A stretch of DNA of 64,000 nt from Callorhinchus milii (Eukaryota): contig NW_024704743.1 in the NCBI RefSeq assembly GCF_018977255.1, positions 15,254,001 to 15,318,000 on the forward strand, in the 5' to 3' direction. The notes under the pieces are model-generated. The model was given only the letters and a program-made list of their open reading frames with translations. It did not search any database and was not told the DNA's origin. How positions within the stretch are numbered: position 1 is the stretch's first letter; every line of letters begins with the position of its first letter. This document shows, piece after piece, positions 16,986 to 55,249 of the stretch. The position numbers were made by a program, and so were the translations under genes.

Positions 16986-17011
16986 GTATGTGACGAGATA
17001 AACTTCTAAGT

Positions 17012-20322: not shown

Positions 20323-21930
20323 AGATAGCAGTTATTTTACAGTAGAAAGTGTCCTGAGGAAGGAACAACCAGTTTTTCAAGATCAGACTCTCCTTTGGAA
20401 TTTGTTTCATCACACGTGTATGCAACAAACTGCTTCCCTCAGCCTGCATGTGACTGTTGCACCAGAATTTATTCCGGAATAGAGGGGACAGTATTAAAGT
20501 CAATCCAGATAAATAAATCACTTCAGCTTCTTGCTCAAACTCCAGTGTGTCTTCTCATTAACATTTACCAGTGTTACAATTATATAAATAAAATGCTAAT
20601 TATGATTAAAAAGCAATGCTTTAACCTTCGGAAACGTTTTTTGCTTCTATTACAACTGCATTACAACCTCCTTTAATTATGTTATTTATTTCTTAAGTTT
20701 CACAATCATCTGTAAACAGCTTTTAAATCAGAGCAGAACCAGATTGAACTGTCACCCACAACTCTTTTGTTTTTGGGTGTATGCTATGACAACAAACCTT
20801 TTAGGATTATAACTCCATGTCATTGCAATAGAGCTGGAATTGTCTGGTTCTGCGGCTGTTACTTGCCTGATCTCTGATTTACTCTGCTGTTCCCTCAATA
20901 AAAGTAATGTGCACTAAACAGACGAAAGCTAGAAGTGCCGGGCATTCCTGAGTAGCAGAGAACTGGCTCTGTTTCCTGCATCACAGTGGTCAGTTTAAGT
21001 GACTCGGTACTAGTTCTGTTTTGAGGCTCGTGCCATTACTAAATGGACATGAACCATACTTGTCATCACGCCTTCTTCAAGCAGGATCCATCGGAGTGGA
21101 GTGCTCTACACAAGCACACTCAGTATGTAACCTGTTTGTGTTTAGTATGAATTTCTAGTACAGTTCTAGTAAATGCACATACATTCATCAGGCAGTCAGT
21201 TTTCAGGAGATATACCCCAATTGTGTTGATGTACTACTGGGCTATTGAACTGAACGTTTGTCTATGTGCGCGATGGTGGCTTTGTGATAGCCTTTGCAGG
21301 ACGCTTAACATGTGTAGCTACTACATGTAAATGTCAAGTTTTTTTTTATGTTGGTGTCCACTTAGCAAGGAAAATGAGAAGGATCATTAGGGAGCTATCA
21401 GCATGGTGCATTAGTGTTCTCTCTACCTCTTGTTGCAGACAGGTATTCTTTCAACCTGCTTTCTTTGAAAAAGTCTACTTTAACTGGTTGCTCGTATTGG
21501 TCATAAAAATCCTTTATAATGACTAACATTCAGTGATATGTGCTAAGTCGATATTGGAAATAGTTTTGTTGCCAGTTGTTATGTGATGGTGATGCTCGTG
21601 GAGACAGACACACAAAGTCCAAAACAAAGTGAATGCATCCAACATGAATCTAACTGAGAAAGCAGGTCCTGCTCATTCTGTTGTTTTGCTGCTGTTGCAA
21701 AGTTGCCCTTTTTTTGTTTCATGAAAACTTTGTAGAAATGTATTTAAAGATTTTAAGGGAACAGTCTCTTTATCGGTCACTGGCTTTTTTTTAGCAGCTG
21801 CATCAAGGATATAGTGTTATGTGAATGTAACATTTTAGTTTTACACTGTATTATTACGTATTTATAGTTATGTGCTTACAATTGTGCATACACTGGCAAT
21901 AAACTGTATATAACATTAACTAATTAATGA
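20323..21930 (+). other. CLASP2: CLASP2 3' UTR (end approximate)
   Basis: About 1.6 kb after the stop with no recognisable repeats, ending near AATAAA at 21898 with T/GT-rich sequence downstream. Confidence 0.6.
21898..21903 (+). terminator. Likely CLASP2 polyadenylation signal (alternative AATAAA at 20587 and 20897)
   Basis: AATAAA preceded by TGTA motifs and followed by T/GT-rich sequence. Confidence 0.55.
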
Positions 21931-33220: not shown

Positions 33221-34340
33221 TTTTTCAGGACACTATCTTGGGATTGTTACAATCCTTTGGTTTAACATCTCTGCTGAAGGATGGCACTTTTAATAATGCA
33301 GAGCTCCTCCAGCGCTGAATTGGAACATCAGCCTGGACTGTGAGCTCAAAATCAAAGCTTGGGGGGGGGGGTTGAACCCACATCTGTCTGACTCATAGTA
33401 ATAGTCAAGGCACTAGAGGTAAGTTTTTGTCTGACACAATGTTTTATTTTAAAACTGTAGTACTACAGCATACAATAAGAATGCACAGGTCCAGAAAAGA
33501 CCATTGGAGTCTATCCAACCTGTATTGTCATTAAAAAAAACAACATATAAAAAAACTTCACATATAAACAGAGATTAGAATTTAACTCTAAGATGGCCTC
33601 AACATCTGAGTATCAACAAAGCAGTATCTCCATCTCTATGTGTCTATCCATTTATTTTGGTTGTGCTGCGTGTTGATACTGATACTCTGCTTGTTGTTTG
33701 TAGTTTAATCAAACTGGCTTCAGGACTTTATTTTCTTGTTACACAAAGCAGTGTGTACAAATTGAGATCGGTCACGGTCACCACTTTGCTTCCTATGTTT
33801 AAAATATGTTCTGTAAAGTTCACTAAAAGCATTAGCCGGTGTGAGTGCCGTTACTAATCACCGATTGCGCTCTGGGAAACTTGGAAAAAGTCATGAAGTT
33901 CAGTAGAACTGGCGCTTGCGCATTATAAATATATTGAGTAGCCCTTCAAATACATATTTTTTAATGCATTCAAAGTTTTTGATACTTATGGTGCCAACAT
34001 GTCTGACTGTAGCATCTATTGCAACAATTTGGTGGGGCAACTGACTATCTACAATTTGCATAAGTGAAGGGGGAAGGTGTACTGTTTTCATATTAGGTCA
34101 CTTAAAAGATGATTTTGATTGGACCATTGGGTACCCTAATTTGGGGAGGGGCTCAATGTACATAAAAGAATAAGCACCATGTGCTTGTGGGGGTCACTAT
34201 TTTTCTTCTAGAAAACAGCAGGAGGTGTGTGCTTTGACTGTTGATGAGCAGTAGTCAGAGGTTGGTTCTTCGTGCACTTTACATTAACTTCATTACAAGG
34301 GGCTGCTAACGTGTGTAGTTTAAGTGTGATTAATGTTTGT

Positions 34341-34730
34341 TGTCTCATAGTTGCTTTTCTTTATATTTATCGTGTCGTTTAAGATTTAATGCCGAGGGTT
34401 GCGGATTTCATCGAAGCTACAATAAAATTCTGTGCCTTCTCGAGCTTTCTGGAAATCAAAGAAGGAGGCAATGCACAAACAGGTTCAGCCTAGGTCACAG
34501 AGGTGTTCGAAAATAAACCTGATTAACTGAAGCTTCCCAATTTGCTTTAACTTAAATAGCAGTTGGTAGTATATGTCGACATGGAAGAACTCATTAGTCA
34601 AGTTATACCTAGTTATAGGGACTTGCATTCATTAGTGAGGATTGAACACAGAAGCCACCCAGTACACTCTGCGAGGAGGAAGCGAGACATATTGTGGGTG
34701 TACATATAAGGGGGTGTAAGAAGCATCTCA
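34341..34730. mobile_element. Interspersed repeat, possibly a solo LTR (~390 bp)
   Basis: Can be delimited TG...CA, contains AATAAA, partial second copy at 27181-27401 shares the right end; no TSD found. Confidence 0.35.
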
Positions 34731-34780
34731 GATTGTAGCCTCAAATGAAACCCATGAGTTATGTGGCGTTCCCCACGTAT

Positions 34781-34957
34781 AACAACAACAAGATTACATT
34801 TATAGAGTGCCTTTCATGTCGGGAGGACGTCCCAGGGCGCTGGACAGTTGGGCTGGGACCTGAGCAGGGGGGAAATGGTCAGGGTGAAGGGAGGGAAGGA
34901 GCGAGGAGAGGGTAGAGCGTCGAGAGGGGAGCTGAAGGCACGGTTGAAGAGAACCGT
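34781..34957 (-). mobile_element. L2 3' tail of the same subfamily as 14245-15980
   Basis: Reverse complement matches 15755-15975. Confidence 0.88.
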
Positions 34958-37004
34958 GCTTTTTATCATTGCAGATAACCAAAACCATCTTAGAAATAAC
35001 ATCGCCATTTAAATCATTTTCCTTATTGTCCAGCAAACCTTGTTTATATTATTGATAATAATTTATACGCAATGGCACTGAGGAATGCTCGATTATCTCT
35101 TTAAAATGATTCCTTTTGATTTGCAAAAATAATTTTTAATAACAGGCCTGCAGGCCAACTAGAATAAGCAGTCAATTGTTTATATATTAAAAGAGGTTTC
35201 TTGCAATAAACTGAATTAGGATTGGGGGACTAAAATGTGGAACAGGAATACTTAACAGGAAATTTGAGGGTGCAAATGGCAACTTCCCTTTTTTTATGGA
35301 TAGCCGGGTGTCTGACACATGTGGAAACTCATCACCGTGGTTATCAAAGCCAAAATGACAGTTCCGTGCATTCAACCTACACGTGGAAATTCCTATTTAT
35401 TGGAATGGAATTTGTGCTCTCTCCCTGGAGGGATGTATCCTGTTTAACTAATTCCGGAAAGTACTAGGCACAGGTTGGTAAGAACCAAGACTTGGGGATC
35501 CTAGAGTGTGTATTGGAGTCTAACCAACTAAAACTATATAGCTTGCCATTGAGAGCATTGCCTCCCAAGCTTCCCTGCTGCTTGCCCGGCGAGGACCACC
35601 CTTGTATTTAAAGGTTTGGCTTACAGGGTTAATCAGAGCTGAGTGGGTGGATTTCCTGCCCCAGTGACAGCTGCCCCTTCATGTCCTACTTATAAACCAG
35701 TCTGGGATCAGCACTGCCAGTTCAGCTCCAAAGAGACCCTACTTACCCCCCACCAACCTCCCCTCCAAGGAGGACTTCCCTGATTAGAGGGAATTCTGTT
35801 CCAATGCAGTCTATGGCTGGAGGAGATTTCCCCCGAGTTATGGGGAATTTAAATGACATTGCTTATTGAAGAGTTCCAGAAATTGCATGATTTTAGCATT
35901 CCATCAGTGACTTTTTTACCCACAAAATATACAGTCAATTCACTCTACAGTATATTCTGTGAAGCGCTTTGAGACGTCTCAATCATGTGCTAAGGTGCCA
36001 TATCAAATGCAAGAATTATTATTTGCTAAGAAAAAAATTGCTACACACCGTTTCAATTAAAATCCTGCATCTTCAATGTTTTCATAAAAATAGCATTAGG
36101 CAAACAGTTAATGTCTGGACATTTTATTTTAAAAAGGCACATAATAAACTGATAATTGTAATGTAATGACAGGCACAGTGAGTTAGTTATTATTGTTTAG
36201 ATAGGCAACCGTGGATTCTCCACACACACAGCGCCCTCTGCTTTCTAGTACCCAGAAACCAGCTCCTTTGCAAATGCAAAATGCAATCCTGCAATAATCA
36301 GTCATATACGGTAATACTAAATAAATCAGGGGAAAACAACTATTAAAAACACCCAAAAGTAGAGGCAAGTCGTTTAATCCAACTCCAAGATGTGTGTACG
36401 TGATATACGATTTAAGAAAGTGAGTGAAACTCTGTATAAGATTGCCCCTCAGCAATCACACAGAAGCCATCGGAATTGTAATTCTGAAGTTGTTTGTACC
36501 AGATGTAAGTTTTGGACAGGTTGCTGAATGATTGATGTGTAGTGTGTGTCTATGTGTGAATGCCCTTATCTCCACTGGGTTTAGCTCTGACACTGACGTC
36601 AGATAAAGGTAATAAAGCAAGTGGTTCTCAGGTAACACCACCCACCGCTTCCTCTCTCTCAGGATATGTGTGATGTGCGTTTAAACCCAACTTTGTTTTG
36701 CTTTTTATCATTGCAGCGAGCTCTCGACTGAACACTCCGGACCGCACCACAAAATGTTGTTCTGGCACTCCCAACCCGAGCAGTACCATCAGTACCCAAG
36801 CAGTAACAGTTACCTCCGGTAAGCCATTCTGCCTGCCTTCACTTTACATTGCTTTGCCCTTTGCTCACCTCTCTCTGGGGGTGCAACTGAACACAACCAG
36901 CTCCAGCCTCTGTACACATGGCTTCTGCTCATCATCAGGCACTTTAAGTACTCTTTGATGTCTGCTACCAAAACCCATGCAGAATATTGCAGGTTAATAA
37001 TGGA

Positions 37005-37172
37005 CTCTTGCAGATAGTGGCTAGTGTGCTTGCCTCGCAAGCAAGAGGACCAGGGTTTGCTTCCTGAGCGGGACAAAACCTTAAGTTCCTTACTCCACAC
37101 GCCTCTATTTAGCGAGCAGTAAGTAGGAACCCGGTTGTGAGTCGATTGGCAGATCGCTTTCCCCAGGTAATA
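37005..37172 (+). mobile_element. tRNA-SINE 5' portion
   Basis: Degenerate head plus ttccttactccacacgcc...agtaagtaggaacccgg. Confidence 0.75.
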
Positions 37173-37664
37173 ATCCAATATTTTATTTAATGGATACAAA
37201 ACTGTGCTTAGATATTAATCATATTTTGCACACAAAAAAAAGTCACTGGATTTTACAGTAAATCCTGCCAAAATGCTTTGGGGCACACCCCCAACATGAA
37301 GGGTATTTTCCATAGTATATTTTAATGGTAATAATCATCCTTGCATTTGATATAGCGCTTCATTGCTTTGTCTAGTTGTCTCAAATTGCTTAACGGGATG
37401 TACTGTAAAGTGATATGGTAATGATAAGAGCATTAACCTGACAGAACACACTGTGCATTAATTATTGTTGTACAAGGTTTCTCTTTGTCAAATATATGTC
37501 AAAACCTAGCATTTGACATTTCGTGTAGAGCACTTTGACATCACACATACAGATATACACTACTTGCTACCCTAGAGACACCCATAGAACAGGAAGAATG
37601 TTTGGTATGGTTCTTTGTTGATTGACAGACAATTGTAATCTGATTTTACTGTAGTTTTTTTTAA

Positions 37665-37955
37665 AAAGGGATGGGGGAAGAATCATTGACTTGAGGGACA
37701 TAGATATAAGTTTGTCACAAGAAGAATGGAAGGAAAGTTAGGAGAATTTTTTTTACTCAGAGAGCTGTTGGGACTCCTGCCAAGTGGTAGAGGCAGTGTC
37801 CATTGTGGGTTTCAAGAGGGAAGTTGAGAGAAAAATGAAAGATAGAGGATATGGCGTTCCTGTGGGATTGGATGGACAACTTAATTTGAGAGCCGCTGCC
37901 GACTTCGTGAGCTGAATGTTCTCTTTCTGTGCTGTGAATTTTTATGATTCTACGA
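37665..37955 (+). mobile_element. Old CR1 3' end
   Basis: gagggacatagatataag...tttttactcagagag...ctttctgtgctgtgaatttttatgattcta. Confidence 0.7.
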
Positions 37956-38449
37956 TGATTATATACGGGTCACTTATTATAACCAACAATCGCTCATTTT
38001 GATTTCCAAATATTGCATTATTTTAAAGCGTGAAACTTATTTCAAAAGAGAAAAAAGCATTTACATGTTTAAATGGACTTGCAATCCACAGTACAGTACT
38101 GGATATAGATGTTCTTAATATTAATAAGTGTTATGAATTAATATATTAATATTAATTAATATGTTAATGTAATAAATAATGAACATGTCCCAGAATTAAG
38201 TAAGCAGGATGCGTCCCTCCAGGGAGAGAGTGCGCATCCCATACCAACAATCTCTCCAGGATTTCCGTGTGTTGATGGGATGAGTGGAACTCGCAGTTTG
38301 GTTTGGATACTCTTAAGCACGGAGATGGGTTTCGGTACGTGTCAGACACCCGGCTGACAAAAACATACGCTTAATATTGTTTGCCTACAAAATAACAAGG
38401 TCAGGGCACTTGATAGTGTAACCTCCTCCCGATGTGCAGGGTGATATAA

Positions 38450-38640
38450 TAACAACAACAATTTGCACTTGTGTAACGCCCTCCACGCAAGGGTAGCGCC
38501 TCAGAGCGCCTCACAGTGGCGGAGCTTGACTCCGAGCCGGGGTGGGTGGCGGGGGAGGAGAGATGGCCGGAAGCACGGCCGAAGAGGGAGGTTTTCAGGC
38601 GGGACTTGAAAAAGGGCAGAGAGGGGGCCGCGCAGTGAGA
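38450..38640 (-). mobile_element. L2 3' tail abutting the upstream minisatellite
   Basis: aacaacaacaatttgcacttgtgtaacgccctccacgc...; same tail as 45315-45466 in the opposite orientation. Confidence 0.8.
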
Positions 38641-38666
38641 GTGTGGAGGAGTACATTAGCAGCAGG

Positions 38667-41600
38667 TGTAGCCCCCCCAGCCCCTCTCACCTCACACTGT
38701 AGCCCCCTCTCACCTCACACTGTAGCCCCCTCTCACCTCACACTGTAGCCCCCCCTCTCACCTCACACTGTAGCCCCCTCTCACCTCACACTGTAGCCCC
38801 CTCTCACCTCACACTGTAACTCCCCTCTCTCTCACCTCATACTGTAGCCCCACCTCTCTCACCTCACACTGTAGCCCCCCTCACCTCACACTGTAGCCCC
38901 CTCTCACCTCACACTGTAGCCCCCCTCACCTCACACTGTAGCCCCCCCACCTCACACTGTAGCCCCCCCTCACCTCACACTGTAGCCCCCTCTCACCTCA
39001 CACTGTAGCCCCCTCTCACCTCACACTGTAGCCCCCTCTCACCTCACACTGTAGCCCCTCTCACCTCACACTGTAGCCCCCTCTCACCTCACACTGTAGC
39101 CCCCTCTCACCTCACACTGTAGCCCCCCTCACTCACACTGTAGCCCCCCTCTCACCTCACACTGTAGTGCCCCCTCTCACCTCACTGTAGCCCCCTCTCA
39201 CCTCACACTGTAGCCCCCCTCACCTCACACTGTAGCCCCCTCTCACCTCACACTGTAGCCCCCTCTCACCTCACACTGTAGCCCCCCTCTCACCTCACAC
39301 TGTAGTCCCCCCTCTCACCTCACACTGTAGTCCCCCCTCTCACCTCACACTGTAGCCCCCCCTCTCACCTCACACTGTAGCCCCCCCTCTCACCTCACAC
39401 TGTAGCCCCCTCTCACCTCACACTGTAGCCCCCTCTCACCTCACACTGTAGCCCCCTCTCACCTCACACTGTAGCCCCCTCTCACCTCACACTGTAGCCC
39501 CCTCTCACCTCACACTGTAGTCCCCCCTCTCACCTCACACTGTAGTCCCCCCTCTCACCTCACACTGTAGCCCCCCCTCTCACCTCACACTGTAGCCCCC
39601 ACCCCTCTCACCTCACACTGTAGCCCCCCACCCCTCTCACCTCACGCTGTAGCCCCCCACCCCTCACCTCACACTGTAGTCCCCCTCTCACCTCACACTG
39701 TAGTCCCCCCCTCTCTCACCTCACACTGTAGTCCCCCCTCTCACCTCACACTGTAGCCCCCCCTCACCTCATACTGTAGCCCCCCCACCCCTTTCACCTC
39801 ACACTGTAGCCCCCCCCACCCCTCTCACCTCACACTGTAGCCACCCACCCCTCTCACCTCACACTGTAGCCCCTCTCACCTCACACTGTAGCCCCTCTCA
39901 CCTCACACTGTAGCCCCCCCCCTCTCACCTCACACTGTAGCCCCCCCCTCTCACCTCACACTGTAGCCCCCCCACCCCTCTCACCTCACACTGTAGCCCC
40001 CCACCCCTCTCACCTCACACTGTAGCCCCCCACCCCTCACACTGTAGCCCCTCTCACCTCACACTGTAGCCCCCCCACCCTCTCACCTCACACTGTAGCC
40101 CCCCCACCCCACTCACCTCACACTGTAGCCCCCCACCCCTCTCACCTCACACTGTAGCCCCCCCACCCCTCTCACCTCACACTGTAGCCCCCCCACCCTC
40201 TCACCTCACACTGTAGCCCCTCTCACCTCACACTGTAGCCCCCCCCACCCCTCTCACCTCACACTGTAGCCCCCCACCCCTCTCACCTCACACTGTAGCC
40301 CCCCCACCCCTCTCACCTCACACTGTAGCCCCCCACCCCTCTCACCTCACACTGTAGCCCCCCCACCCCTCTCACCTCACACTGTAGCCCCCCCCACCCC
40401 TTCACCTCACACTGTAGCCCACCCCACCTCACACTGTAGCCCCCCCCTCACACTGTAGCCCCCCACCTCACACTGTAGCCCCCACCCCTCTCACCTCACA
40501 CTGTAGCCCCCCCACCCCTATCACCTCACACTGTAGCCCCCCCACCCCTCACACTGTAGCCCCCCCCACCCCTCACACTGTAGCCCCCCCACCCTCACAC
40601 TGTAGCCCCCCACCCCTCTCACCTCACACTGTAGCCCCCCCACCCTCACACTGTAGCCCCCCACCCCTGTCACCTCACACTGTAGCCCCCCCCACCCCTC
40701 TCACCTCACACTGTAGCCCCTCTCACCTCACACTGTAGCCCCCCCACCCCTCTCACCTCACACTGTAGCCCCCCCACCCTCTCACCTCACACTGTAGCCC
40801 CCCCACCCCTCTCACCTCACACTGTAGCCCACCCACCCTCTCACCTCACACTGTAGCCCCCCCACCCCTCTCACCTCACACTGTAGCCCCCCCACCCCTC
40901 TCACCTCACACTGTAGCCCCCCACCCTCTCACCTCACACTGTAGCCCCTCTCACCTCACACTGTAGCCCCCCACCCCTCTCACCTCACACTGTAGCCCCC
41001 CCACCCCTCTCACCTCACACTGTAGCCCCCCACCCTCTCACCTCACACTGTAGCCCCCCCACCCCTCTCACCTCACACTGTAGCCCACCCCACCCCTCAC
41101 ACTGTAGCCCCCCCACCCCTCACACTGTAGCCCCCCACCCCTCTCACCTCACACTGTAGCCCCCATCCCTCACACTGTAGCCCCCACCCCTCACACTGTA
41201 GCCCCCCACCCCTCTCACCTCACACTGTAGCCCCCCCACCCTCACACTGTAGCCCCCCCACCCCTCACACTGTAGCCCCCCCACCCTCACACTGTAGCCC
41301 CCCCCACCCTCTCACCTCACACTGTAGCCCCTCTCACCTCACACTGTAGCCCCCCCACCCCTCTCACCTCACACTGTAGCCCCCTCACCTCACACTGTAG
41401 CCCCCACACCTCACACTGTAGCCCCCCCACCCCTCACCTCACACTGTAGCCCCCCACCTCACACTGTAGCCCCCCCACACCTCACACTGTAGCCCCCCAC
41501 CCCTCTCACCTCACACTGTAGCCCCTCACCTCACACTGTAGCCCCCTCTCACCTCACACTGTAGCCCCCTCACCTCACACTGTAGCCCCCCCTCACCTCA

Positions 41601-42792
41601 CACTGTAGCCCCCCCTCACCTCACACTGTAGCCCCTCTCACCTCACACTGTAGCCCCCTCTCACCTCACACTGTAGCCCCTCTCACCTCACACTGTAGCC
41701 CCCTCTCACCTCACACTGTAGCCCCCTCTCACCTCACACTGTAGCCCCCTCTCACCTCACACTGTAGCCCCCCCTCACCTCACACTGTAGTCCCCCCTCT
41801 CACCTCACACTGTAGTGCCCCCTCTCACCTCACTGTAGCCCCCTCTCACCTCACACTGTAGCCCCCTCTCACCTCACACTGTAGCCCCCTCTCACCTCAC
41901 ACTGTAGCCCCCTCTCACCTCACACTGTAGCCCCCCCCCCTCTCACCTCACACTGTAGCCCCCTCTCACCTCACACTGTAGCCCCCTCTCACCTCACACT
42001 GTAGCCCCCCTCTCACCTCACACTGTAGCCCCCCTCTCACCTCACACTGTAGCCCCTCTCACCTCACACTGTAGCCCCCCTCACCTCACACTGTAGCCCC
42101 CTCTCACCTCACACTGTAGCCCCCTCTCACCTCACACTGTAGCCCCTCTCACCTCACACTGTAGCCCCCTCTCACCTCACACTGTAGTCCCCCCTCTCAC
42201 CTCACACTGTAGTCCCCCCTCTCACCTCACACTGTAGCCCCCCCCTCTCACCTCACACTGTAGCCCCCCACCCTCTCACCTCACGCTGTAGCCCCCCCAC
42301 CCCCTCACCTCACGCTGCAGCCCCCACCCCTCTCACCTCACACTGTAGTCCCCCCTCTCACCTCACACTGTAGTCCCCCCCTCTCACCTCACACTGTAGT
42401 CCCCCCCTCTCACCTCACACTGTAGTCCCCCTCTCACCTCACACTGTAGCCCCCACCCTCACCTCACACTGTAGCCCCCCACCCCTCTCACCTCACACTG
42501 TAGCCCCACCCACCCTCTCACCTCACACTGTAAGCCCCTCTCACCTCACACTGTAGCCCTCTCACCTCACACTGTAGCCCCCCCCCCTCTCACCTCACAC
42601 TGTAGCCCCCCCCCTCTCACCTCACACTGTAGCCCCCCACCCCTCTCACCTCACACTGTAGCCCCCCCCACCCCTCTCACCTCACACTGTAGCCCCCCCA
42701 CCTCACACTGTAGCCCTCTCACCTCACACTGTAGCCCCCCCACCCCTCTCACACTCACACTGTAGCCCCCCCACCCCACTCACCTCACACTG
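38667..42792 (-). repeat. ~4.1 kb minisatellite, + strand unit (C)n-TCTCACCTCACACTGTAG, ~22-28 bp, roughly 160-170 units
   Basis: Directly visible tandem array; reverse complement is GGGGGCTACAGTGTGAGGTGAGA; copy number estimated from length. Confidence 0.98.
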
Positions 42793-43383
42793 GGCTGTAA
42801 CTCACCCAGGAGGGCGGGCTCTGATTGGCTGTAACTCACCCAGGAGGGCGGGCTCTGATTGACTGAACGAGGCAGTCACTCAGCAGGGAGGGCAGATTCT
42901 GCGTGATGATTGGCTAAAGCTATGTGTCACTCAGCCCCGGGGAGGGCGTGCTCCGGACTCAGATTGGTTGGTCCAAGCTATCAAGTCAGCGGGACCGGGA
43001 CGGCTGCTGTGCGCAGGCGCGGTTTTGGGGTCGGCGGCTGGGTGGAGGGTGACGAGCGGCCATGTTTGTGCCGGAGTCGGTGTGGGATCGGGAAGGGAAC
43101 GGAGGAGGCGGCGACGACGACAGCAACCGCAGCTCCGGGGGCGCGGGCAGCGCGTGAGGCGAGAGCCGGGAGTGGGGGCGTGGAGCCGCGTCTGTGGGCG
43201 GCGCTGGGATCAGCCGCCAGTGCGTGTCTGTCAGCCCGTCCGTGTGTGTGTGTGTGTCTGTGCGGCACCATGGCCCAGTGAGCGGGGCCCGGCCCCGGGC
43301 CTGTCACAGCACCGCCCTCCACACACACACACACACACACACAGCCCGGGCCGGGGCCGGGGCCGGGCTCGGCCTCCCTCACC
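42793..43383 (+). promoter_or_regulatory. UBP1: UBP1 CpG-island promoter and 5' leader with GC boxes and inverted CCAAT boxes
   Basis: Most CpG-dense non-repeat segment in the window; GGGCGG at 42812 and 42846; ATTGG at 42824, 42909 and 42963; directly upstream of the ATG at 43384. Confidence 0.85.
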
Positions 43384-43496
43384 ATGGCCTGGGTGCTGAA
43401 GATGGACGACGCCATCGAGTCCGGCCTCGTGCACGACTTCGACGCCAGTTTGTCCGGAATCGGCCAAGAGCTGGGGGCCGGGGCCTACAGTATGAG
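43384..43496 (+). CDS. UBP1: UBP1 (upstream binding protein 1 / LBP-1, CP2/Grainyhead family) coding exon 1
   Basis: Kozak accATGg; [37 protein letters not shown](S); the MAWVLKMD start distinguishes UBP1 from TFCP2 (MAWALKLPLAD); donor AG|gtgaga. Confidence 0.96.
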
Positions 43497-45200
43497 GTGA
43501 GAGAGAGGGGGGCTACAGTATGAGGTGAGAGAGGGGGGGGCTACTGTATGAGGTGAGAGAGAGAGGGGCTACAGTATGAGGTGAGAGGGGAGTTACTGTA
43601 TGAGGTGAGAGGGGGGGGGCTACAGTATGAGGTGAGAGAGAGAGGGGTCTACAGTATGAGGTGAGAGGGGGCTACTGTATGAGGTGAGAGGGGGGCTACT
43701 GTATGAGGTGAGAGGGGCTACTTATGAGGTGAGAGGGGGCTACTGTATGAGGTGAGAGAGAGAGGGGTCTACGGTATGAGGTGAGAGGGGCTACGGTATG
43801 AGGTGAGAGGGGGCTACTGTATGAGGTGAGAGGGGGGTAGGTGAGGTGAGAGGGGGCTACTGTATGAGGTGAGAGGGGGTTACTGTATGAGGTGAGAGGG
43901 GGGCTACTGTATGAGGTGAGAGGGGGCTACTGTATGAGGTGAGAGGGGGCTACTGTATGAGGTGAGAGGGGGCTACTGTATGAGGTGAGAGGGGGTTACT
44001 GTATGAGGTGAGAGGGGGTTACTGTATGAGGTGAGAGGGGGTTACTGTATGAGGTGAGAGGGGGGCTACTGTATGAGGTGAGAGGGGGGCTACTGTATGA
44101 GGTGAGAGGGGGGCTACTGTATGAGGTGAGAGGGGGCTACTGTATGAGGTGAGAGGGGGTTACTGTATGAGGTGAGAGGGGGTTACTGTATGAGGTGAGA
44201 GGGGGTTACTGTATGAGGTGAGAGGGGGCTACTGTATGAGGTGAGAGGGGGGCTACTGTATGAGGTGAGAGGGGGGGCTACAGTATGAGGTGAGAGGGGG
44301 GCTACTGTATGAGGTGAGAGGGGGGCTACTGTATGAGGTGAGAGGGGGCTACTGTATGAGGTGAGAGGGGGCTACTGTATGAGGTGAGAGAGGGGATTAT
44401 AGTATGAGGTGAGAGGAGGACTGCAGTATGAGGTGTGGGAGGGGCTACAGTATGAGGTGAGAGAGGGGTGGGGGCTACAGTATGAGGTGAGAGTGAGGGG
44501 GGCTACAGTATGAGGTGAGAGGGGGGCTGCAGTATGAGGTGAGAGAGGGGTGGGGGCTACAGTATGAGGTGAGAGTGAGGGGGGCTACAGTATGAGGTGA
44601 GAGGGGGCCGCAGTATGAGGTGTGGGGGGGCTACAGTATGAGGTAAGAGGGGGGGGCTACAGTATGAGGTGAGAGGGGGGGGCTACAGTATGAGGTGAGA
44701 GAGGGGCTACAGTATGAGGTGAGAGAGGGGCTATAGTATGAGGTGAGATGGGGCTGCAGTATGAGGTGAGAGAGGGGGGGCTGCAATATGAGGTGTGGGG
44801 GGGGGCTACAGTATGAGGTGAGAGGGGGGGGGCTACAGTATGAGGTGAGAGAGGGGCTATAGTATGAGGTGAGAGGGGGCTGCAGTATGAGGTGAGAGAG
44901 GGGGGGCTGCAATATGAGGTGTGGGGGGGGGCTACAGTATGAGGTGAGAGAGATGGGGGCTACAGTATGAGGTGAGAGAGAGTGGGCTACAGTATGAGGT
45001 GAGAGAGGGGTGGGGGGGGCTACAGTATGAGGTGAGAGAGAGGGGGGGCTACAGTATGAGGTGCGAGAGAGGTGGGGCTACAATATGAAGTGAGAGTGGG
45101 GGGCTACAATGTTAGAATGAGAGAGGGAGGGGGCTACAGTATGAGGTAAGAAGTGGAGGTGACTACAATATTAGGTGAGAGTGGGGTCTATAGTATGAGT
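43480..45200 (+). repeat. ~1.7 kb minisatellite, unit (G)n-CTAC(A/T)GTATGAGGTGAGA, roughly 70 units; degenerate units resume at ~45520-45700
   Basis: Directly visible tandem array whose first unit is the UBP1 exon 1/intron 1 junction. Confidence 0.98.
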
Positions 45201-45219
45201 TCAGAGAGGGGGCCTTACA

Positions 45220-45520
45220 GTAATAGTAATAATCCTTGCATTTGATATAATGCGTTATCAAGTCTTGAGCTGTCTCCAGGTTCTTCAAAGGTTATACTGT
45301 AAAGTGTGGTGAAAATTTTCCTCTTCAACCGTGCTTATAGCCAACTCTCCCTCCTCCCCCCCCCACCCACCCCGGCACAGAATCAGGCTCCGCACTGTTA
45401 AGCGCTCTGAGACGCTACCCTGCGTGGGGCGGAGGGGGGCGCTACATAAGTGCAAGTTGTTGTTGTAGAGACTTTTGTGGGCAAAACACGGCAGCTAATT
45501 GCACACAGCAGTGTCCCACA
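45220..45520. mobile_element. SINE tail (-) with a nested L2 tail (+, 45315-45466), interrupting the intron-1 minisatellite
   Basis: Recognisable SINE and L2 tails; degenerate minisatellite units resume at ~45520. Confidence 0.75.
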
Positions 45521-46189
45521 GTATGAGGTTAGAGAGAGTGGGGGGACTACAGTTTGGGGTGTGAGAGCGGGGAGGGCAACAGTATGAGGTATCTAAGAGA
45601 GAGATGGGGGGGAGGGGCTATAGTATGAGGTGAGAGAGATTGTGAGGGTGCCTACAACATGAGGGGAGAGAGAGAGTGGGGGGGGGGGGGCTACAGTAAT
45701 GATAGAGAGATGGGGAGAGAGGGGGGAAAGGGTTCAGAGTGGGGGGAAGGGCAGTGGGGGAAGTGGAGTGAATGAGTGAGGGGCAGAGGTAGAAGGAAAA
45801 TGAGAAGTTGTTTACAGTAGAAAGCAGAAAACATGTTTTTGAATACAGAATGAGGCCTTTTAGCCTATTATGTTTGTATAACTGACAGCTTTTTTGTCAC
45901 TTTAAAAATTAATTGGCTCTTCTCCCTGTATTCCTAAATTATTTAGTACCTAGGTGATTATCCAGTTCCCTTTTAGGATTCAAGGTCAGTACTGTTTGTT
46001 TCTCTGTCTGCGCTTGCCACAGCTGTCATTGGCATACAAACAATTTGCAGAGTCATCCACACAGACTTAGTCTCAATTCCTGGTGTCAGACACTAATCTA
46101 CGTTGGTACCACCTAGATCAGAAAATCTTATTTTATTTAAAAAAAGTTATTGACAAACCCCTTCTCCCAACAACTTTTAGTGACTATAT

Positions 46190-46900
46190 TTATCACTAGA
46201 GGACTCGCCTTGCAAAGCGAGAGGACCCAAGTTCAATTCATGGGCAGGACAACACCTCAGGCAACTCTCCTGTTTACCTAGCAGTAAGTAGGAACCTGGT
46301 TGTTAGTCAATTGGCAAATCGCTTTCTGGGGGTAATAATCCCTTCCAAAAATAATAATAATAATTTGGTCACTCAATCCACGGCTGTTTTCGTGGGACAC
46401 TGCTGTGTGGAATTGGCTCCTGCGTTTCGCCCACAAAATATCAGTCAATCCACTTTACAGTATACTCTGTGAAGTGCTTTGAAGTCTGTGATGTAATACG
46501 TCGCTATAACATGCAAGGTATTACAATACGTTTGGACTTTTTTTAAACTATCTTTTATACCTATTGCGTGTGCTTTAAAGGAAGTGAAGTTTCAATTGGG
46601 AGTTGGCTAGCTACTCCATTTGGCGAAAAATTGATTGAAGATATGAGAAGTAACATGTGGCATGTTTTTTGCTTTGGAACAATAATGTTTTTTTCTGTTC
46701 CTGTACATTATTTATTAAAATAATAATAAATCGGGTCACTTCAATCCACGACTGTATGTGGGACACTGCTGATCGCAATAGGCTGCCGTGTTTCGCCCAC
46801 AAAATATGTAGTCAATTCACTTTATAATATATTTTGTGAAGTACTTTGAGATGTCTTGAAGACGTGAAAGGCGCTGTATCAAATCTGAGGATTATTATTC
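46190..46900 (+). mobile_element. Two tRNA-SINE copies (46190-46525 and 46720-46900)
   Basis: Same family as 31428-31731. Confidence 0.8.
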
Positions 46901-47984
46901 CTATTTGGGTACCCAAAGTGCAGTATGACAATTACCGTATGATTAGACATTGGTTGAGGGGTGTAAACAGACTGAATTAACCTGCCATTCCCTGGGGGTG
47001 TAAACAGATTGAATTTAGCCTGCCATTCCAGAAAGCAGATGTTTTGTTCTTGCCATTCCCAGTAAGCAGATGATTTGTTCCTGTCATTCCTGGAAAACAG
47101 GTGTTTTTATTTTTATAGATTGATAAATACATTTTTTTGGTCAGCCAGGTGTCTGATGCATGCGGAAACCCATCACCCATGCTTAAGAGCATCAAAACTA
47201 AACCTGGAAATTCCAGAGATGTTTATTGGAATGGAATGCTTGGCAGGCTTTCCTGGTGTTTGTCCAGCTGGGACCGCCCTACTTGTTAGGACTTTGTTTT
47301 GCAAGGTTAACAGAAGCTGAGTAGAGAGAGGGAGTCCCTGCCACCAGTGACTGGTCTGTCCTTCCGTGTCCTACATGTGAGCCAGTCTGGATGTGCTGTC
47401 ATCAGCAGCGTCCTGTCATCAGAAATGTGTCAAGAGTATTTCCACCATCCTGCCCACAGCTCCTACACATGTCCCTCCCTTCCCAATAAGCAATGGTTCC
47501 ACTATTTGGAGGTGCCTTTTAACCTTTCCACCATTTGGAGGTCACCTTTTTAAATGATATCTGAAGCCCGAACCTCCATATTTATTTTTCTGGTTTAGAC
47601 AAGAGACCCCCACCCCCTTCCTTCTTTGTCACGACCAGCGAGTATGACTTGTTGCAATTCATGCGTATAAATTACTAGAGAGATTACTTTTGATATGACT
47701 TGTAGATGATAATTGTAAACGGTCCTCCGTTAGGGTCTTCTTGGAGCTGAACTGACTCCAAGGTGACATGTCTGGCAGTGGAATGTCGGAATCGAGCCAG
47801 CCCTCTGTTGCGGTCTTGGTAGTAGTCCGGTTCCTGAGCCGGGCGGGTCCGCAGTATTCTAGGGCACTACTAATGACAGCACAGTCAGCCTGGCTCATCG
47901 GCGGGACCTGGAAGGTCAGACCAGTCACTGGGAGCAGGAAGTCATCTAACTCAACTCCTGTTAGCCCTGTTATCAGTAAATATA

Positions 47985-49195
47985 GTGTAAAGTTTACCAC
48001 CTGCTGCCTCAATCCCCTTCTCACCCAGCTGCTGGTCACTCAGCTCCCCCTCCTCTCCCTACTGCTACCGTCCCATTTCTAACCTACCCTTCCTTGTCAA
48101 AGTCCTGGAATGCATTATTGCAGGTCAACTTCGGTCACACCTCTCCCTGCACTCCCTCCTCAAGCCTCTGCAGTCTGGTTTTCGCCCCGTCCACAGCACA
48201 GAGACACTTGTCAAAGTCACAAACAACATCCTCGCTATCTGTGACCAGTGCTCCCTCTGTCTCCTTGTCCTCCTGGATCTCTCTGCTGTGTTCGACACAG
48301 TCGACCACGCCATCCTCCCCCATTGCCTCTCCTCTCTCATCCATCTTAGTGCGACAGCACTCGCATGGTTCAAGTCCTACTTAACCAACCGCCTTCATTT
48401 CATGTTTTCTCCTCCCGCCCCCGTCCAGTCACCTGCAGGGTACCACAAAGCTCCATCCTTGGCTCCCTTTTCCTTATCATCCTTCTGGATGATGTCATTT
48501 GCAGACACGGAGTAAACTTCCACATGTATGCGGACAACATACAAATCTACTTTGCCTCTTCCAGTACTAACTCTAGGTCCGTCGATGTTCTTCGACCTCT
48601 GCCACATTGCCTGCCTCCGAACACACATTACCCCAAATACAGCCAAAACCCTTGTGCACGTGTTTGTCACCTCCTGCCTGGATTACTCAAACTTACTCCT
48701 CGCTGGTTTCCCCAGCTCACTCAAAAGACCTAGCTCATTCAGAACTCTGCCGCCTTACCCAGACCAAACTCTGCACCCACATCTCACCCATTCTGGCCAG
48801 GCTCCACTGCCTCCCCATCACCGAATAGATCGACTTCAACATCCTCACACTAGTGTTCAAATCCCTTCACTCTCTGGAACCTCCCCACCTCTCTGACCTC
48901 CTCACTCTCCAATCCACCACCTGGCGCCTCCGATCGACTGGCACCGGCCTCCTGCTCATCCCGCTCACCCTCTGCCCCACTATCATTGGTTGCGCTTATA
49001 GCCACTACACCCCGTAACTCTGGAACACTCTCCCTCAATCCCTCCTCCTTGCTCCCTTCCCTTTTTCAAGTCCTGCCTGAAGACCTTCCTCTTTGACCGT
49101 GCCTACGGCCACTTCCTCCCCCCCCCCCGGCTCTGCCATTCCGCTCTGAGACACTACTCTGCGTGGAGGGCGCTATATAAGTGCGAGTTGTTGTT
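47985..49195 (+). mobile_element. Degraded L2 LINE; a further L2 tail at 49355-49625
   Basis: [20 protein letters not shown] and ILARLHCLP motifs. Confidence 0.9.
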
Positions 49196-50514
49196 AGCCC
49201 TGCCCTAGCTGGACAAGCAGTGGGAAAGCTTACCAGACTGCAGAATCAGTGGCAAGCTATGCGTTTTTAGCTGCTTAGACTTTAGCAGTACTCCAATGCA
49301 CACTCTGAGGTCCCCAAGCCTTGGTTCTTGCCAACCTGCGCCTAATACTTTATGTCTTTCTGCCACTCTGCCCCCACCCTTTGGAACTCCATCCCGCAGT
49401 TCCTCCACCTTGCCCCGTCCTTTGCCTCCTTCAAGACCCATCTCAAGACCCTCCTCTTCGACTCGTGCATTCGATCACCCTGCTTCCCCCCCCGCCCTCC
49501 ACCCTTCCCAATCCCGACCCCTAGCTCGGGTGCAAAACTCTGATTGTCCAGCGCCTTGGGACGTCCTCCCGATCTGAAAGATGTCCCCCCCATGTAAAAA
49601 TTTATTTTATTGTTGCTGCTGTTGTTTCGCTAGAAAATTGAGAAAAACAAGCAAATATTTAAAAATCTGCTGTTGAAAGTGTTTATTAGGTGTTATTAGG
49701 TGTTACAACTGTTTTGGGTTGGCTGAGAATTTTAGTATTGTGCTGTAAGACGGATTTAGGATTCGTCTGGTCTGACTATTTTAAAAGTGAATAAAAACTT
49801 TCAGTGGTTGGCATGGAGTTGTCCTGAGGACCCCTATGGTGTCTCGTGCTTTTACAAATTCCTTACGTAATTCTTGTTTTTCAGATAGATATTAAATCTT
49901 AGCACTTGGTAGCCAGAGGGTAACTTAATACTTAACTGACCTGCTGTGACTTTAAATTACTGGAGAGATTGCTTTTGGTATGACTTGTAGGGTGATACTT
50001 ATAAACTTATCAAGAAATTATGTTCGTTTCAGACAAGATCAGGTTTACCTAAGCCATTTCAATGATAGCTAAATTATTTGCTTCTATTATTTATCCTTTT
50101 GAGGTTGAGCAAATAAGTCTTAAAATGTTCCTCCTTCATTACAATAAATAGACCTTAATATCAAGTTAGTTGAGCTTTAAATGTATTGAAAGCTTAGGTT
50201 TGATAAATTTGTACATTCTGTTAAATACAGGAATACCAGATCTGATGCGCCTTGCTATAATGTGAGTACGTAATCTGATTGGGTTGTGGATCTTGACATT
50301 TCCTTACCTCAAAATCTCAACATTGTTCCAACCACATTACATTATCTTAACAACATAAATGAAGTGCACTGAGGTTTTTTTGAAGCAGTCCAACATTAGA
50401 GCAGTCAGCTGGCTTTCTGTGCACGTGTTCAGTGATGGTAAGGATCTTATGGTTAGTGAGGTTGCATTGCTGCGTCTGATCATGCCTTGATTTTATGTGG
50501 GTTATAATTATCAG

Positions 50515-50930
50515 TTTGGCTCAGTTGGTACCATTCTTCCCTCTGAGTCAAAAGGTTGTGGGTTCAAACCCCATGTCAAGACTTAGAACCCATATAGTCT
50601 ATGTTGCATTGCTGTGCTATATTGTTGGAGGTGCAATCCTTCTGATGGGCTGTTAAATGGGGTTCGTTCTTCCTGTCTGGGTAGATGCTAAAGATCTCAT
50701 GGCATTATTTGAAAGGAGAAAGGAGTTTATCCCTGTGTCCTGGCCAACAGTCCTCCAAATAAAATGGATTATTCTCTTCATCCTCCTGGAAAGCTGAGGA
50801 GAGGAGCTGTTTGTGGGACATTGCTGTGCACAAATAGACTGCTACATGTGCCCACAAAATACACATAGTCCCACCGTTTTACAGCATCTTAATGATGTGA
50901 TAAGGTGATAATCAAGTAAAATGATTATTA
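50515..50930 (+). mobile_element. DeuSINE-type (SacSINE1/AmnSINE1-like) SINE
   Basis: tRNA-like head tggctcagttgg...gggttcaaaccc, then Deu-domain-like ggaggtgc...ctgatg...taaagatctcatggcattatttgaa...tgtcctggccaa; family recognised from memory, not by search. Confidence 0.65.
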
Positions 50931-51061
50931 TTCTATAATGATGTTGACCTACTTTATTTTACATTTAAATATTAGTCTTTTCCTGTTACACATTGTATTG
51001 ATAGCCATCTTTTTCTTGGAGTGGGTAGATTGTATTGATATTCTTATTCCTGATTTTGCAG

Positions 51062-51213
51062 TGATGTCTTAGCCCTACCCATTTTCAAGCAAGAAGACTC
51101 GAGCCTTCCATCAGAGAATGAGACAAAACATCCACCATATCAGTATGTGCTCTGTACAGCCACATCTCCTGCAGTGAAACTGCACGATGAAACCCTCACA
51201 TACTTGAACCAAG
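51062..51213 (+). CDS. UBP1: UBP1 coding exon 2
   Basis: ttttgcag|T and G|gtatgt; [50 protein letters not shown]. Confidence 0.96.
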
Positions 51214-51609
51214 GTATGTTTAAATGTATTCAGTTATGAATCCAGTTTGGCTTATCTGCGTGCTTGTACATGTATAGGGAAAGAGATGAATTTTTATTTT
51301 CTTTATTACCTTATAACGGTTTGAATTAACTCTTGTCAAGAATGTGAGCAAAATAGCAGCCGAGACAGACTCAGTCCTCCAAATAAAATCAGTTACTCTC
51401 TCCATCCTGCTGGAAAGCTGAGTAGGAGAGGAGCTGTTTTTATGGGAGTCCGAGTCTAATCTGCGACTGTTTTCAATTTGAAATTATCACTTGCTTTCAA
51501 AAGGTACATTCTAATGCCAAACGAGCAAAGGCAGTTCATGGATGAGGAAGACCTTGTAATGCGGTGGGAGATTTGGGATGCATCTTGTTACGTTCAGTGA
51601 GAATTATGT

Positions 51610-52210
51610 GCGCAACTTAGGCATCAGGTTCATTTCCCAGCTGTTCTTTCCATCCCACATCTGGTCCCTGACCAGGACTGTTTTCCTCCATTTCTGCCAC
51701 ATTGCCTACGTCTGACCACACCGCAAGCCCAAAACTGAAAGCCTCATCCACGCATTCGTCACTTCCCACCACGATTTTTCAAATACCCTCATTGCTGGTC
51801 TCCCCAGCTCCACCGCCCCCAAAATCCAAACAATCCAAAACTCCACCACCTTTATTCTTGCCCATACCAGGCTCCACACCCCATCATCCCAGTCTTTGCG
51901 AGGCTCCACTGGCTATCCATGGCAGAACAGATCGATTTCAAGATCCTCACACTTGTGTACAAATTAGTTCTTTTACAGTCCCTCATCCCCTCCGATTCAC
52001 CATTGGTGGCCCTGCTTTCAGTCAATAAGCTCTGAAAGTCTGGAAATCTGCCTCAGTTCCTCCAGTTTTCCCCCTTCCTTGCCCGTCTTCACATCGCACC
52101 TGAAGATGTTCCTCTTTGACCTGCGGTAATCTCTCCCCACCTCGCTTTCAAGCTCCGTGACTGTTGAGCATTGTGAGACACTACCCACATAAGTGAAAGC
52201 TGTTGTTGTG
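51610..52210 (+). mobile_element. Degraded L2 3' fragment; another L2 tail (-) at 52355-52510
   Basis: aggctccactggct...gaacagatcgatttcaagatcctcacact. Confidence 0.8.
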
Positions 52211-53034
52211 GTGATCCTTTATCCTGTTGGAAGCTGAATAGGAAAAGATGTGGAGTCTTGAAGGATTTGTAAATATGAGTTCTGCCTGGAAGGAATGAAG
52301 TTGTTAAAAAGTGATCTGTGTCAGCGACAGTCTTGTCGATCACCAGATAATACAACAATAATTTGGGCTTATATAGCGAACTCCACCCAGGGTAGTGTCT
52401 CAGAGCGCTTAACAGTGGCGGAGCCTGACTTTGAGCCGGGGTGGGGGGAGGTGACCATAAGTACGGTTGAAAAGGAAGGTTTTCAGGTGGGACTTGAAAA
52501 GGGGGAGGGAAGGCTTCCTAGTTTCCTGATAGTCTGCTTTGGGGATGTGAAGGGAATGATGTGCTGTCAGAAAAGTGCTATTGCTTACCTCCTTGCCTCA
52601 GGATAGTTGTGAAAGTTGAGTCTTGCTTTCAGGCAGTGAGCTTCATCTATAGAGAGCCTTGGGAGATCCTCCAGACATGAAAGGCACTATAATTTGTTTA
52701 TATTGTTGTTCATCTTAGAAGTTTGGAAGTCTTGAACCCCTCCCTTTTTTAAAAACAAACAAACTGGGAGTTGCATTCTCTCTGTGAAAGAATCTGAAAG
52801 TATGCTTGTTCAGGTCCTCAAATGATAAGATGGGATGTTTCAATGCTTCATCTGTAAAGGGGGAAGGGCAAATGAAGGTTAGCTAACAGAGCCAATGCTC
52901 TTAAGTTTTGTGAGCTGCTTCGCACCTTTACAGATTATATTGAAAAGTACTGGTAATAATAATCTTTGCATTTGATAATCTGTCTTTCACGACAGGAGGC
53001 CATCTCAAAATGCTTCACAGGATGAAATAATAAT

Positions 53035-53390
53035 AGTAATAATAATAATTCTTACATTTGGTATTGCGGCTTTCATGTCAGGTGGACATCTTGCAGCACT
53101 TTATATGATATACTTTAAAGCGCATTGACTGTGTACTTTTTTGTGGGCAAACGAGGCAGCTAATGTATGCACAGCAGTGTCCCTAATTGTTTTTCCAATA
53201 GCATGGGATCTTTAACGTCCACCTGAACAGGCAGATGGGGCCTTGGTTCAGCTTCTCATCCAAAGGATGACACCTCCAACAATGCATTGGAGTTGTCATC
53301 TTAGACTGTATGAGTTCCAAGACCCGATGTGGGGCTCGAACCCACAACCTTCTGACTCAGAGATGAGAGTGCTACTGACTGAGCCAGCCT
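53035..53390 (-). mobile_element. DeuSINE-type SINE (minus strand)
   Basis: Reverse complement similar to 50515-50930. Confidence 0.65.
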
Positions 53391-55249
53391 GACACACAAA
53401 AAATATGCTGTAAAGTGTTGTGACTGCACTTTATAAGTCAATGCCTACGCTGCTAACAGTAATTGTCGTGAAAGACAGAATATCAAATGCAAAGATTATT
53501 ATTACCAGTACTTTTCATGGAGCCATTTCAGTTCCAAAAACAATTGCTATGATTAATTTGTTTACTAATTAATTCAGTCTGTCTTGGGTTCTGTGCAATC
53601 CTCACAGCTTTGAAATTTACCATTAATTGCTGTCCAGAAAGATATGCTGCTGTTGCTGCTCAAGTTCAGTATCAGAGGCTGTAAGTGTATAGGCAGAATT
53701 AAGTTACTGAATTTAATAGCGTTGGCTTAGTTGGTGGGAAGAAAGTAGTTTTGGTTATAGATGTGACCTGACTGACTCACACCGCAGACTGAAACATTTC
53801 TATAAATAGTTTTTTNCACGTACTTGTATACAAAGATGCAAAAGATAGTGCAGTTTCCCTATTTTGTTCTTTAGTTTTATTAAGTCTTTAAATTGTTCAC
53901 CTTTATAATGTATGTTCATTTTTAATAGCAGAGAGCCGACTGTTTAAACCAGTGCTAAAGGTAGGTTTTTAAGAGGGTTTTGAAAGCAGACGGTGGGTTT
54001 TAAGCAGAGGGATTCAGGAAGCGTAGTTGTTAAAAGCTCAGTGATTGGACAAGTAGACCAGAGTTATGCAGTCCTGGCCTGCGTTTGCAGAGCAGAGGGA
54101 ATGGGCAAGAGACTGGGGTTGAAGAAGATTGTAGAGGTAGGGTGGGGCGAGGGAGTGGATGGACTTGAATGCCATAATGAAAATCTTGAAGCTGATTTGC
54201 TGCAGAACAGGAAGACAGTGGCATGAATTAGGGTTTCAGAGTCACAACTTTTCAAACAAATTTTCTTGCAGAAATTCTGGGGATGGTCTGGACAGGGCAG
54301 GGAGTGCAGCTGAGCTCTCGGAATAACAGGTGGTCATTGCACCTGAAAACAGTGGGAGTAAAGTAAACTGTTTACTTTATCATCTGACGCAGTAGGATAA
54401 TGAAGCATTTGTCCACTTTCAATGAATATGAGATTGGGTTAATGTGGTTTGAGTTTTACAGTGTGTATTGGTGAGTTCACAATGTTGAAGCATATTGGTG
54501 TTGCAAGAAAGTGAACTGTTATACTGTTCATAAAATTTGTACTCGCAGATACTTGTTGCTGCCCATCCTTGGAACTCCTGTTGGTGGTGTAAATGAGGCT
54601 GTGCTGGAGGCACTATTTAAAATGAGAGCAGGTGCATACACTAACAAAAAGGGTGGGGTGGGGGGCGTGGAGTTGAGCAGCTGCTGACTTCAAAGAGAAA
54701 CTTTACTGCCAGTTGCAGCTTCAGGTTCTGATGCAGACATTACTACATTAACAGAAAGTGGTTGAACAGCATGTGCTCAGTTATTTGTTGTCTCCAGGTT
54801 AAACATTATGATCTAATTATTTTGCTACACATATGTTTTGGCTGTATGCCAGTCATTAAATGTCTGCTCTACAATTTTCAAACTACCCCCAAATACTTTA
54901 CCATACATTTTATTCTGGAATGTTGAGTTTTCCTGTTCAATTATTACTTTTCCTTGGAGCAGACGCATCTGCCCAACTTCTGTAAGAGTGAAAGCACTTG
55001 ACACAGCTGAGATAGTTAGAACTCAGGTCAGGAAACATTTCTTCACACAGTAATTACTGTGCCCCACAAAGCTGTAAAGATGGAATCAATAGGAATGTTC
55101 AAAGGAGAGATGGAAACACATTGGGTTGTAGAGATATTAAGGGGAATAGTGCCTTGGGACGTCCTCCCGACATGAAAGGCTTTTCACATGTAATTTGTTG
55201 GTTGTTGTGTAGTGAAAGGTGGGCAATAGTATTAAAAGGTCTGCAAGAA

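Follow-up and report, generated by a model that had tools for sequence, protein, structure and literature searches.

Two inverted arrays of one splice-donor minisatellite enclose the internal promoter and exon 1 of UBP1 in Callorhinchus milii

How did the promoter and first exon of a gene come to lie between two multi-kilobase, inverted arrays of a single minisatellite, and does the complementarity of these arrays serve the gene? This question is raised by UBP1 of Callorhinchus milii, which lies in a window of 64,000 nucleotides (the whole stretch analyzed; NCBI RefSeq assembly GCF_018977255.1, contig NW_024704743.1, positions 15,254,001 to 15,318,000 of the forward strand; positions below are those of the window). 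Self-blastn recovered the two arrays around exon 1 as reverse complements of each other, in agreement with the original prediction for this locus. We consider it fairly probable that the array upstream of exon 1 is an unselected product of copying and expansion, and that RNA pairing between the arrays in a long UBP1 pre-mRNA is a predicted side effect. The elements at the center of this reading are as follows:

38667..42792, minus strand: upstream arm, 161 cores of the donor repeat in reverse orientation, G form; about 163 copies with a period of 23
42793..43479, plus strand: CpG-island spacer with the internal promoter along with exon 1's 5' portion; 687 bp, GC content 0.68, CpG observed/expected ratio 0.80
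42793..42860, plus strand: tandem duplication of 34 bp, perfect, located at the inner junction; its minus strand holds a unit-like word
43384..43496, plus strand: coding part of UBP1 exon 1 in the short isoforms, assigned by protein identity and spliced to exon 2 at 43496
43480..45212, plus strand: intron arm, 65 cores, each an exon end plus GT donor; about 62 to 68 copies, G-rich on the plus strand
45518..45700, plus strand: decayed end of the intron arm, on the far side of a dispersed repeat that interrupts it

The arms share 76 to 80% identity over 1.7 to 2.1 kb in gapped self-blastn alignments, and the upstream arm, which is C-rich on the plus strand, is 2.4 times longer than the intron arm. 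Unit cores of 10 and 14 letters are almost confined to the two arms, with one stray 10-letter match at 29612, and the match between the arms is therefore not due to chance. The diagnostic base that had been said to separate the arms does so. All 65 intron cores have an A there and 159 of the 161 upstream cores a G, the exceptions being the two A-form units at 38835 and 39767. It is not, however, the sole difference, as had been claimed: a T replaces an A three bases before the diagnostic base in 28 of the 65 intron cores and in none of the 161 upstream cores. The spacer has the size and CpG content originally given (about 690 bp) but is not unique sequence throughout, since the 34-bp duplication lies in it, along with runs of (GT)n and (CA)n. 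Decayed units of the intron array go on past the interrupting repeat to about 45700.

The repeat unit corresponds to the last codons of UBP1 exon 1 followed by the splice donor. The exon 1 reading frame from 43384 is identical to C. milii UBP1 at all 37 of 37 residues, and its GT donor lies at 43497; six more UBP1 exons with matching sequence were located in 51062 to 62288, and the protein carries the domains CP2, SAM, and GRHL1_C. The first unit of the intron arm overlaps the real donor at 43497 and codons 34 to 37 of exon 1, and 58 exact copies of an 8-letter donor word are found among the 65 intron-arm cores. With a unit of this origin, the intron arm is a splice-junction minisatellite. Such minisatellites have been described in intervening sequence 7 (IVS7) of human F7, where the variable number tandem repeat has a unit of 37 bp (PMC1557585), and in amphioxus, where they are called mirages (PMC3087553). 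As in those cases, the units of the UBP1 intron arm span the exon-intron boundary, the real donor belongs to the first unit, the signal is preserved in the later copies, and the first site is the one used in the mRNA. The F7 and mirage arrays are, as reported, direct repeats beside the junction only, whereas UBP1 has a second, larger array in reverse orientation across the exon and promoter, which moreover sits in an intron of another isoform. The upstream arm itself, reversed and 687 bp off the junction, is derived from a splice-junction minisatellite and is not one.

The residues encoded by the unit are conserved in the vertebrate UBP1 proteins retrieved. The unit thus began at the exon end, and this fixes the direction of copying. 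It might be argued instead that the unit came from a dispersed minisatellite family, or that the upstream arm grew from the unit-like word in the promoter, so that the mirror arrangement is a coincidence. The minus strand of the 34-bp element does hold such a word right at the inner junction, and the same loose pattern occurs in two copies of long interspersed nuclear elements (LINEs) in the window. This origin is nevertheless very unlikely. Twenty-two of the 23 unit letters match the protein-coding exon end, and rare variants are common to both arms. Two whole DNA-like runs, which gave 25 and 18 contigs on 42690 to 43620, showed no foreign flank on the loose ends of the contigs listed at a likeness of at least 88%, a level at which diverged copies are missed. 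Other scanned windows held no look-alike stretch, the single match there sharing 2 of 104 words and being unrelated.

The same contigs bear on the reality of the arms. Homopolymer-rich tandem arrays are error-prone, and an assembly or fold-back read artefact in one arm is what the original prediction had named as its refutation. The lengths given here for the arrays are assembly lengths, no contig spanning either arm in full. Rare unit variants at 39162 to 39190 recur at 41810 to 41838, which reveals a 2,648-bp internal duplication in the upstream arm; it inflates that arm and could be either real growth or a false join. Set against this, each arm has near-fixed private variants, and both DNA-like runs, which differ from the window at single bases (43132 and 43026), contain G-form units with other run lengths beside the spacer; these differences are at the level of single units, not of whole-array length. 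One contig, moreover, joins the unique outer flank (its loose end is 38637 to 38666) to the first unit of the upstream arm. When looked for in the read contigs, the artefact was thus not found, and we regard it as highly improbable.

Transcription from the spacer was seen in two RNA-like runs, whose RNA status is the tool's guess (no run listed is on record as RNA) and whose contigs drop rare forms. Both runs gave one contig each that leaves at 43496 into exon 2, so that the first donor is the one used. These contigs start at 43004 and 43050, within the spacer; they do not cover 42690 to 43003 and are uninformative on divergent or read-through transcription. The 34-bp element at the inner junction contains words that we take to be CCAAT-like and GC-box-like, and a contig of raised depth covers 42798 to 42861 in both DNA-like runs. 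Further downstream, in the 5' untranslated region (UTR) of exon 1 (43235 to 43389), a three-codon upstream frame at 43270 is bracketed by (GT)n and (CA)n runs in inverted orientation and has the same 10-letter start context as the true start.

A second class of UBP1 isoforms changes the position of the arms with respect to the transcript. Two exons define it, as follows:

36717..36818, plus strand: exon B of the long UBP1 isoforms; identity of 100% with C. milii UBP1 isoform X3, of 88% with Chiloscyllium
51062..51213, plus strand: UBP1 exon 2, the common acceptor for exon 1 and exon B

Exon B is bounded by AG and GTAAG and is present in 4 of the 11 proteins that make up the C. milii cluster and in 3 of the 10 in the cluster of sharks and rays; the remaining proteins mostly start with exon 1. 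Long isoforms are annotated in C. milii, Chiloscyllium, Hemiscyllium, and Narcine. In the annotation, their proteins run from exon B directly into exon 2, and 36819 to 51061 is therefore one intron of the long isoforms. Within this intron lie the two arms and, between them, the internal promoter and exon 1. The original description of the upstream array as lying upstream of the promoter accordingly applies to the short isoform only; in the long isoforms, the arm is intronic. Because the long isoforms have the two arms in a single intron, what is chiefly predicted to follow is an RNA duplex and not a DNA switch.

Folding of the RNA from 41700 to 44500 predicted that 882 of 1,021 intron-arm bases pair with the upstream arm, as do 41 of 42 donors, the real donor included. 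In the predicted fold of the short pre-mRNA (43004 to 44500), which lacks the upstream arm, only 1 of 42 donors is paired. A duplex of 300 nucleotides of each arm has a free energy of −470 kcal/mol, compared with −232 ± 10 kcal/mol for 20 shuffled arms. The diagnostic A stands opposite a C in 35 of 37 units of the predicted fold. Such A-C mismatches are a context preferred by ADARs, whose editing of them stabilizes the helix (PMC11019749). Editing of a T-variant unit, which places G at the diagnostic base, would yield a 10-letter word found on neither strand of the window. Folding thus predicts that the arms pair in the long pre-mRNA and mask both the exon 1 donor and its decoys. Pairing of this kind requires both complementary regions in one pre-mRNA, which is where the annotated exon B-exon 2 isoforms place them. 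The arms resemble published pairs (PMC8052449 and PMC11019749) in that complementary intronic stretches enclose an exon, cover splice sites, and contain A-C mismatches. The pairs of PMC8052449 are, however, defined by conservation, while the UBP1 arms are known from one species; unlike those pairs, the arms are kilobase-long tandem arrays of a splice donor, both of which are present in one isoform only.

Such pairing could be taken as the reason for the existence of the upstream arm, which would then be a selected, isoform-specific splicing shield, kept and enlarged to mask the exon 1 donor and some 60 decoys. The shield would secure the splice from exon B to exon 2 and leave the short transcript, which starts downstream, unaffected; on our assessment this is unlikely. 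Its full form, which we hold to be equally doubtful, has a donor that the gene amplified 65-fold and its antisense array forming a kilobase hairpin in far-promoter transcripts, which conceals the internal first exon together with all decoy donors, is tightened by ADAR through editing of one A-C mismatch in each unit, and is escaped by internal-promoter transcripts, which start in the loop. The upstream arm belongs to the long transcript but not to the short one, a geometry that suits this idea exactly, and the difference in predicted masking between the two transcripts agrees with it as well. In a simple duplex model, U1 pairing is also stronger at the exon 1 donor (−9.7 kcal/mol) than at that of exon B (−8.2 kcal/mol), and in human genes exons looped out between complementary regions are less often included (PMC8052449). 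However, sharks and rays make the long isoform too, and decoy donors seem to need no shield: those downstream in F7 are silent without an antisense arm (PMC1557585), and those of UBP1 are silent in the unshielded short transcript. The upstream arm also exceeds its target 2.4-fold in length, has failed to follow the T variant of the 28 intron units, and brings 161 C-rich, acceptor-like words onto the sense strand.

An action at the DNA level had been proposed originally, in which G-rich non-template strands favor R-loops and G-quadruplexes, and the promoter is flipped, with exon 1, when the arms recombine. We regard it as quite unlikely, although part of its basis is sound. The G-rich strands do face away from the exon 1 promoter, with a GC skew of about −0.75 in the upstream arm and about +0.75 in the intron arm, mirrored around the CpG island. 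The case for G-quadruplexes is weak. G4Hunter scores of at least 1.2 were found in 74% of the windows in the upstream arm and 47% of those in the intron arm, compared with 2% elsewhere, but canonical motifs (loops of 1 to 7) number zero in both arms, and allowing loops of up to 12 gives 7 in the upstream arm and 0 in the intron arm. The divergent strand carries 138 donor words and no AATAAA or ATTAAA for 5.4 kb, until 37326, and a stabilized divergent transcript may exist.

The proposed inversion found no support and looks unlikely. At about 80% identity, the longest perfect match between the arms is 30 nucleotides, and a 25-nucleotide match starts at 26 of 1,709 positions. In double-stranded yeast DNA, 75% identity cut rearrangement about 1,000-fold, and a 100-bp spacer cut recombination 300-fold (PMC10164571). 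The haplotype in the window is no mosaic, with 0 of 65 intron cores in the G form and 0 of 161 upstream cores with the T variant, and no strand-changing joint was seen in the contigs around the spacer, which would not reveal a crossover far inside an arm. In yeast, inverted repeats that are divergent and far apart still fold back once they are single-stranded, and because neither divergence nor spacing hinders long single-stranded DNA there (PMC10164571), fold-back of the arms during resection is possible.

We return to the reading that we favor, in which the upstream arm arose as an inverted copy of a few donor units that then expanded separately, as the original prediction also had it. Three features bear this out. 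First, the upstream arm is by far the more uniform, with a mean of 0.10 pairwise core differences and 154 of 161 cores matching their reference, against 1.24 differences and 23 of 65 matching cores in the intron arm, which in addition decays at its far end. The upstream arm therefore expanded later. Second, it retains an intron-like relic patch near its outer end, as follows:

38820..38874, minus strand: intron-like relic patch of the upstream arm, units 153 and 154 of 160 counted from the promoter

This patch shows the A form, a longer AG run of the kind present in 19 of the 64 intron units, and a rare variant that each arm has just once; unit 154 carries all three intron-type features, and the 30-nucleotide longest match between the arms falls within the patch. 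Third, the outer junction sits on a 5-letter word common to the array and to the 3' end of the LINE that flanks it, as follows:

38448..38671, minus strand: LINE-like 3' end in the outer flank of the upstream arm, of a type that we take to be L2/CR1

The word lies 58 nucleotides before a landmark of the LINE. The distance is 57, 59, and 61 nucleotides in the three further copies long enough to include this point, a truncated copy and a false anchor having been set aside. The inner junction adjoins the 34-bp duplication and its unit-like word and has no clean shared word. It is likely, to judge from these junctions, that a few intron-arm units were pasted backwards by a template switch aided by microhomology. 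At breaks in yeast, microhomology-mediated template switching yields short inverted insertions, mostly of 5 to 34 bp (PMC11724301). The upstream arm is like them in being copied in reverse from a nearby donor, with short microhomology at its outer junction. Those insertions, as reported, stay single, whereas the UBP1 seed, made of tandem units, would have grown to 4.1 kb. The idea that a promoter hotspot of a genome without PRDM9 drove the array expansions is left as no more than an idea, because the status of PRDM9 in C. milii is disputed: it has been found partial, slowly evolving, and not seen in testis RNA (PMC5519329), and has also been counted as complete (PMC8892340).

With its inverted arms, which are long, unequal in size, and built of tandem subrepeats on the two sides of a unique center, the locus also resembles the anatomy of Foldback-type transposons such as Tetris (PMC4079207), and the whole might be such an element, with modular arms and a captured center. 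This is so improbable that we treat it as in effect refuted, since the target-site duplication is missing and the unit comes from the host. Against the 8 to 10 bp expected of a Foldback element, no target-site duplication of at least four letters was found at five candidate right ends, and the arm unit is the end of a host exon. Unlike Tetris, the UBP1 locus also has no outer flanking domain, and no dispersed copies were seen among the contigs listed, in which diverged copies would be missed. LINE-like ends of an abundant family flank the arms in inverted orientation at 38448 to 38600 and 45330 to 45470. They were considered as part of the duplication and rejected: they match each other with 54 bits, while the upstream copy matches another copy with 130 bits. 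That they are not each other's best match also speaks against a Foldback element.

The course of events that we propose would begin with the exon end and its donor as the repeat unit, an identity that can be read directly at the exon 1 boundary. A short stretch of the intron arm would then have been copied in reverse into a break between the LINE end and the 34-bp element of the promoter, and one unit would have changed from A to G and swept the new array. The short mRNA, as the contigs show, starts within the spacer and uses the first donor, and the long isoforms, as annotated, read through both arms. In the long pre-mRNA, the arms are predicted to form a duplex as long as 1.7 kb. The promoter and exon 1 would be looped out by it, the real donor would be hidden together with its decoys, and ADAR would be presented with an A-C mismatch in each unit. 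None of this RNA pairing would be needed, because relatives make the long isoform too.

Several points weigh against this account. The two A-form units may be products of later conversion or polishing errors and not relics, and that at 39767 has a G-form counterpart in the 2,648-bp internal duplication. None of the contigs listed bridges the inner junction with 31 letters on both sides. The account of the origin is drawn from the C. milii sequence alone. The long isoform is known here from protein annotation and not from reads, one of its accessions being presumably cDNA-derived. RNA folding covered 2.8 kb only, and protein coating or fast splicing could prevent the arms from pairing. Neutrality, finally, is a default and not a result.

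Splice-junction minisatellites, backwards templated copies, and long-range pairing in pre-mRNA are known ingredients; a literature search that covered few subscription papers found direct junction arrays and no precedent for the paired arrangement. The locus offers a natural, internally controlled test bed, with two pre-mRNAs that carry the same 65 donors, exposed in one and predicted to be masked in the other. Within one cell, it allows comparisons of U1 scanning, of the silencing of decoy donors, and of hyper-editing by ADAR along a periodic A-C substrate. If the splicing shield were real, a regulatory RNA structure would have been built entirely from mutational by-products of a splice site, and the ratio between the two N termini of UBP1 would be adjusted by the length of the repeats on either side. 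If it is not, the locus remains a clear record of a CpG-island promoter gathering repeats on both sides.

Further coding exons lie upstream of exon B, as follows:

21043..21122, plus strand: candidate far-upstream coding exon A of a long UBP1 isoform, ending in phase 2 and in frame with exon B
34244..34260, plus strand: coding part of an alternative upstream exon, A', encoding the first residues of C. milii P0123, P0126, and P0132

Exon A has 85% identity over 20 residues to the N terminus of Chiloscyllium isoforms and also matches the N termini of Narcine and Hemiscyllium; it is absent from the C. milii models retrieved, and its donor is weak by U1 pairing. Exon A' is followed by a GT at phase 2 and is in frame. 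Several isoforms that carry exon B bear the RefSeq name "transcription factor CP2-like protein 1". This naming suggests that an ancestral gene may have had both N-terminal exons, of which the paralogues TFCP2L1 and UBP1/TFCP2 later kept different ones.

On the plus strand at 16780 to 20323 are the last exons of a HEAT-repeat gene, for which the Atlas leads are the CLASP_N and XMAP215_CLASP_TOG clusters, although Pfam at its cut-off gave no match for these exons. We presume it to be CLASP2, the neighbor expected from synteny. Exon A lies 0.7 kb past the stop codon of this gene and is flanked by candidate poly(A) signals, at 20897 on one side and 21898 on the other, and the far start of UBP1 may thus overlap the 3' UTR of its neighbor. 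Rfam gave no families in 34000 to 52000. Two other repeats were observed in the window. A stretch of 146 bp occurs in inverted orientation, with 97% identity, at 13972 to 14117 and 15993 to 16138, on either side of a 1.9-kb LINE-like copy. A direct repeat of 224 bp with 87.5% identity, unlike the common dispersed families, is present at 27181 to 27402 and again, 7.3 kb away, at 34509 to 34730.

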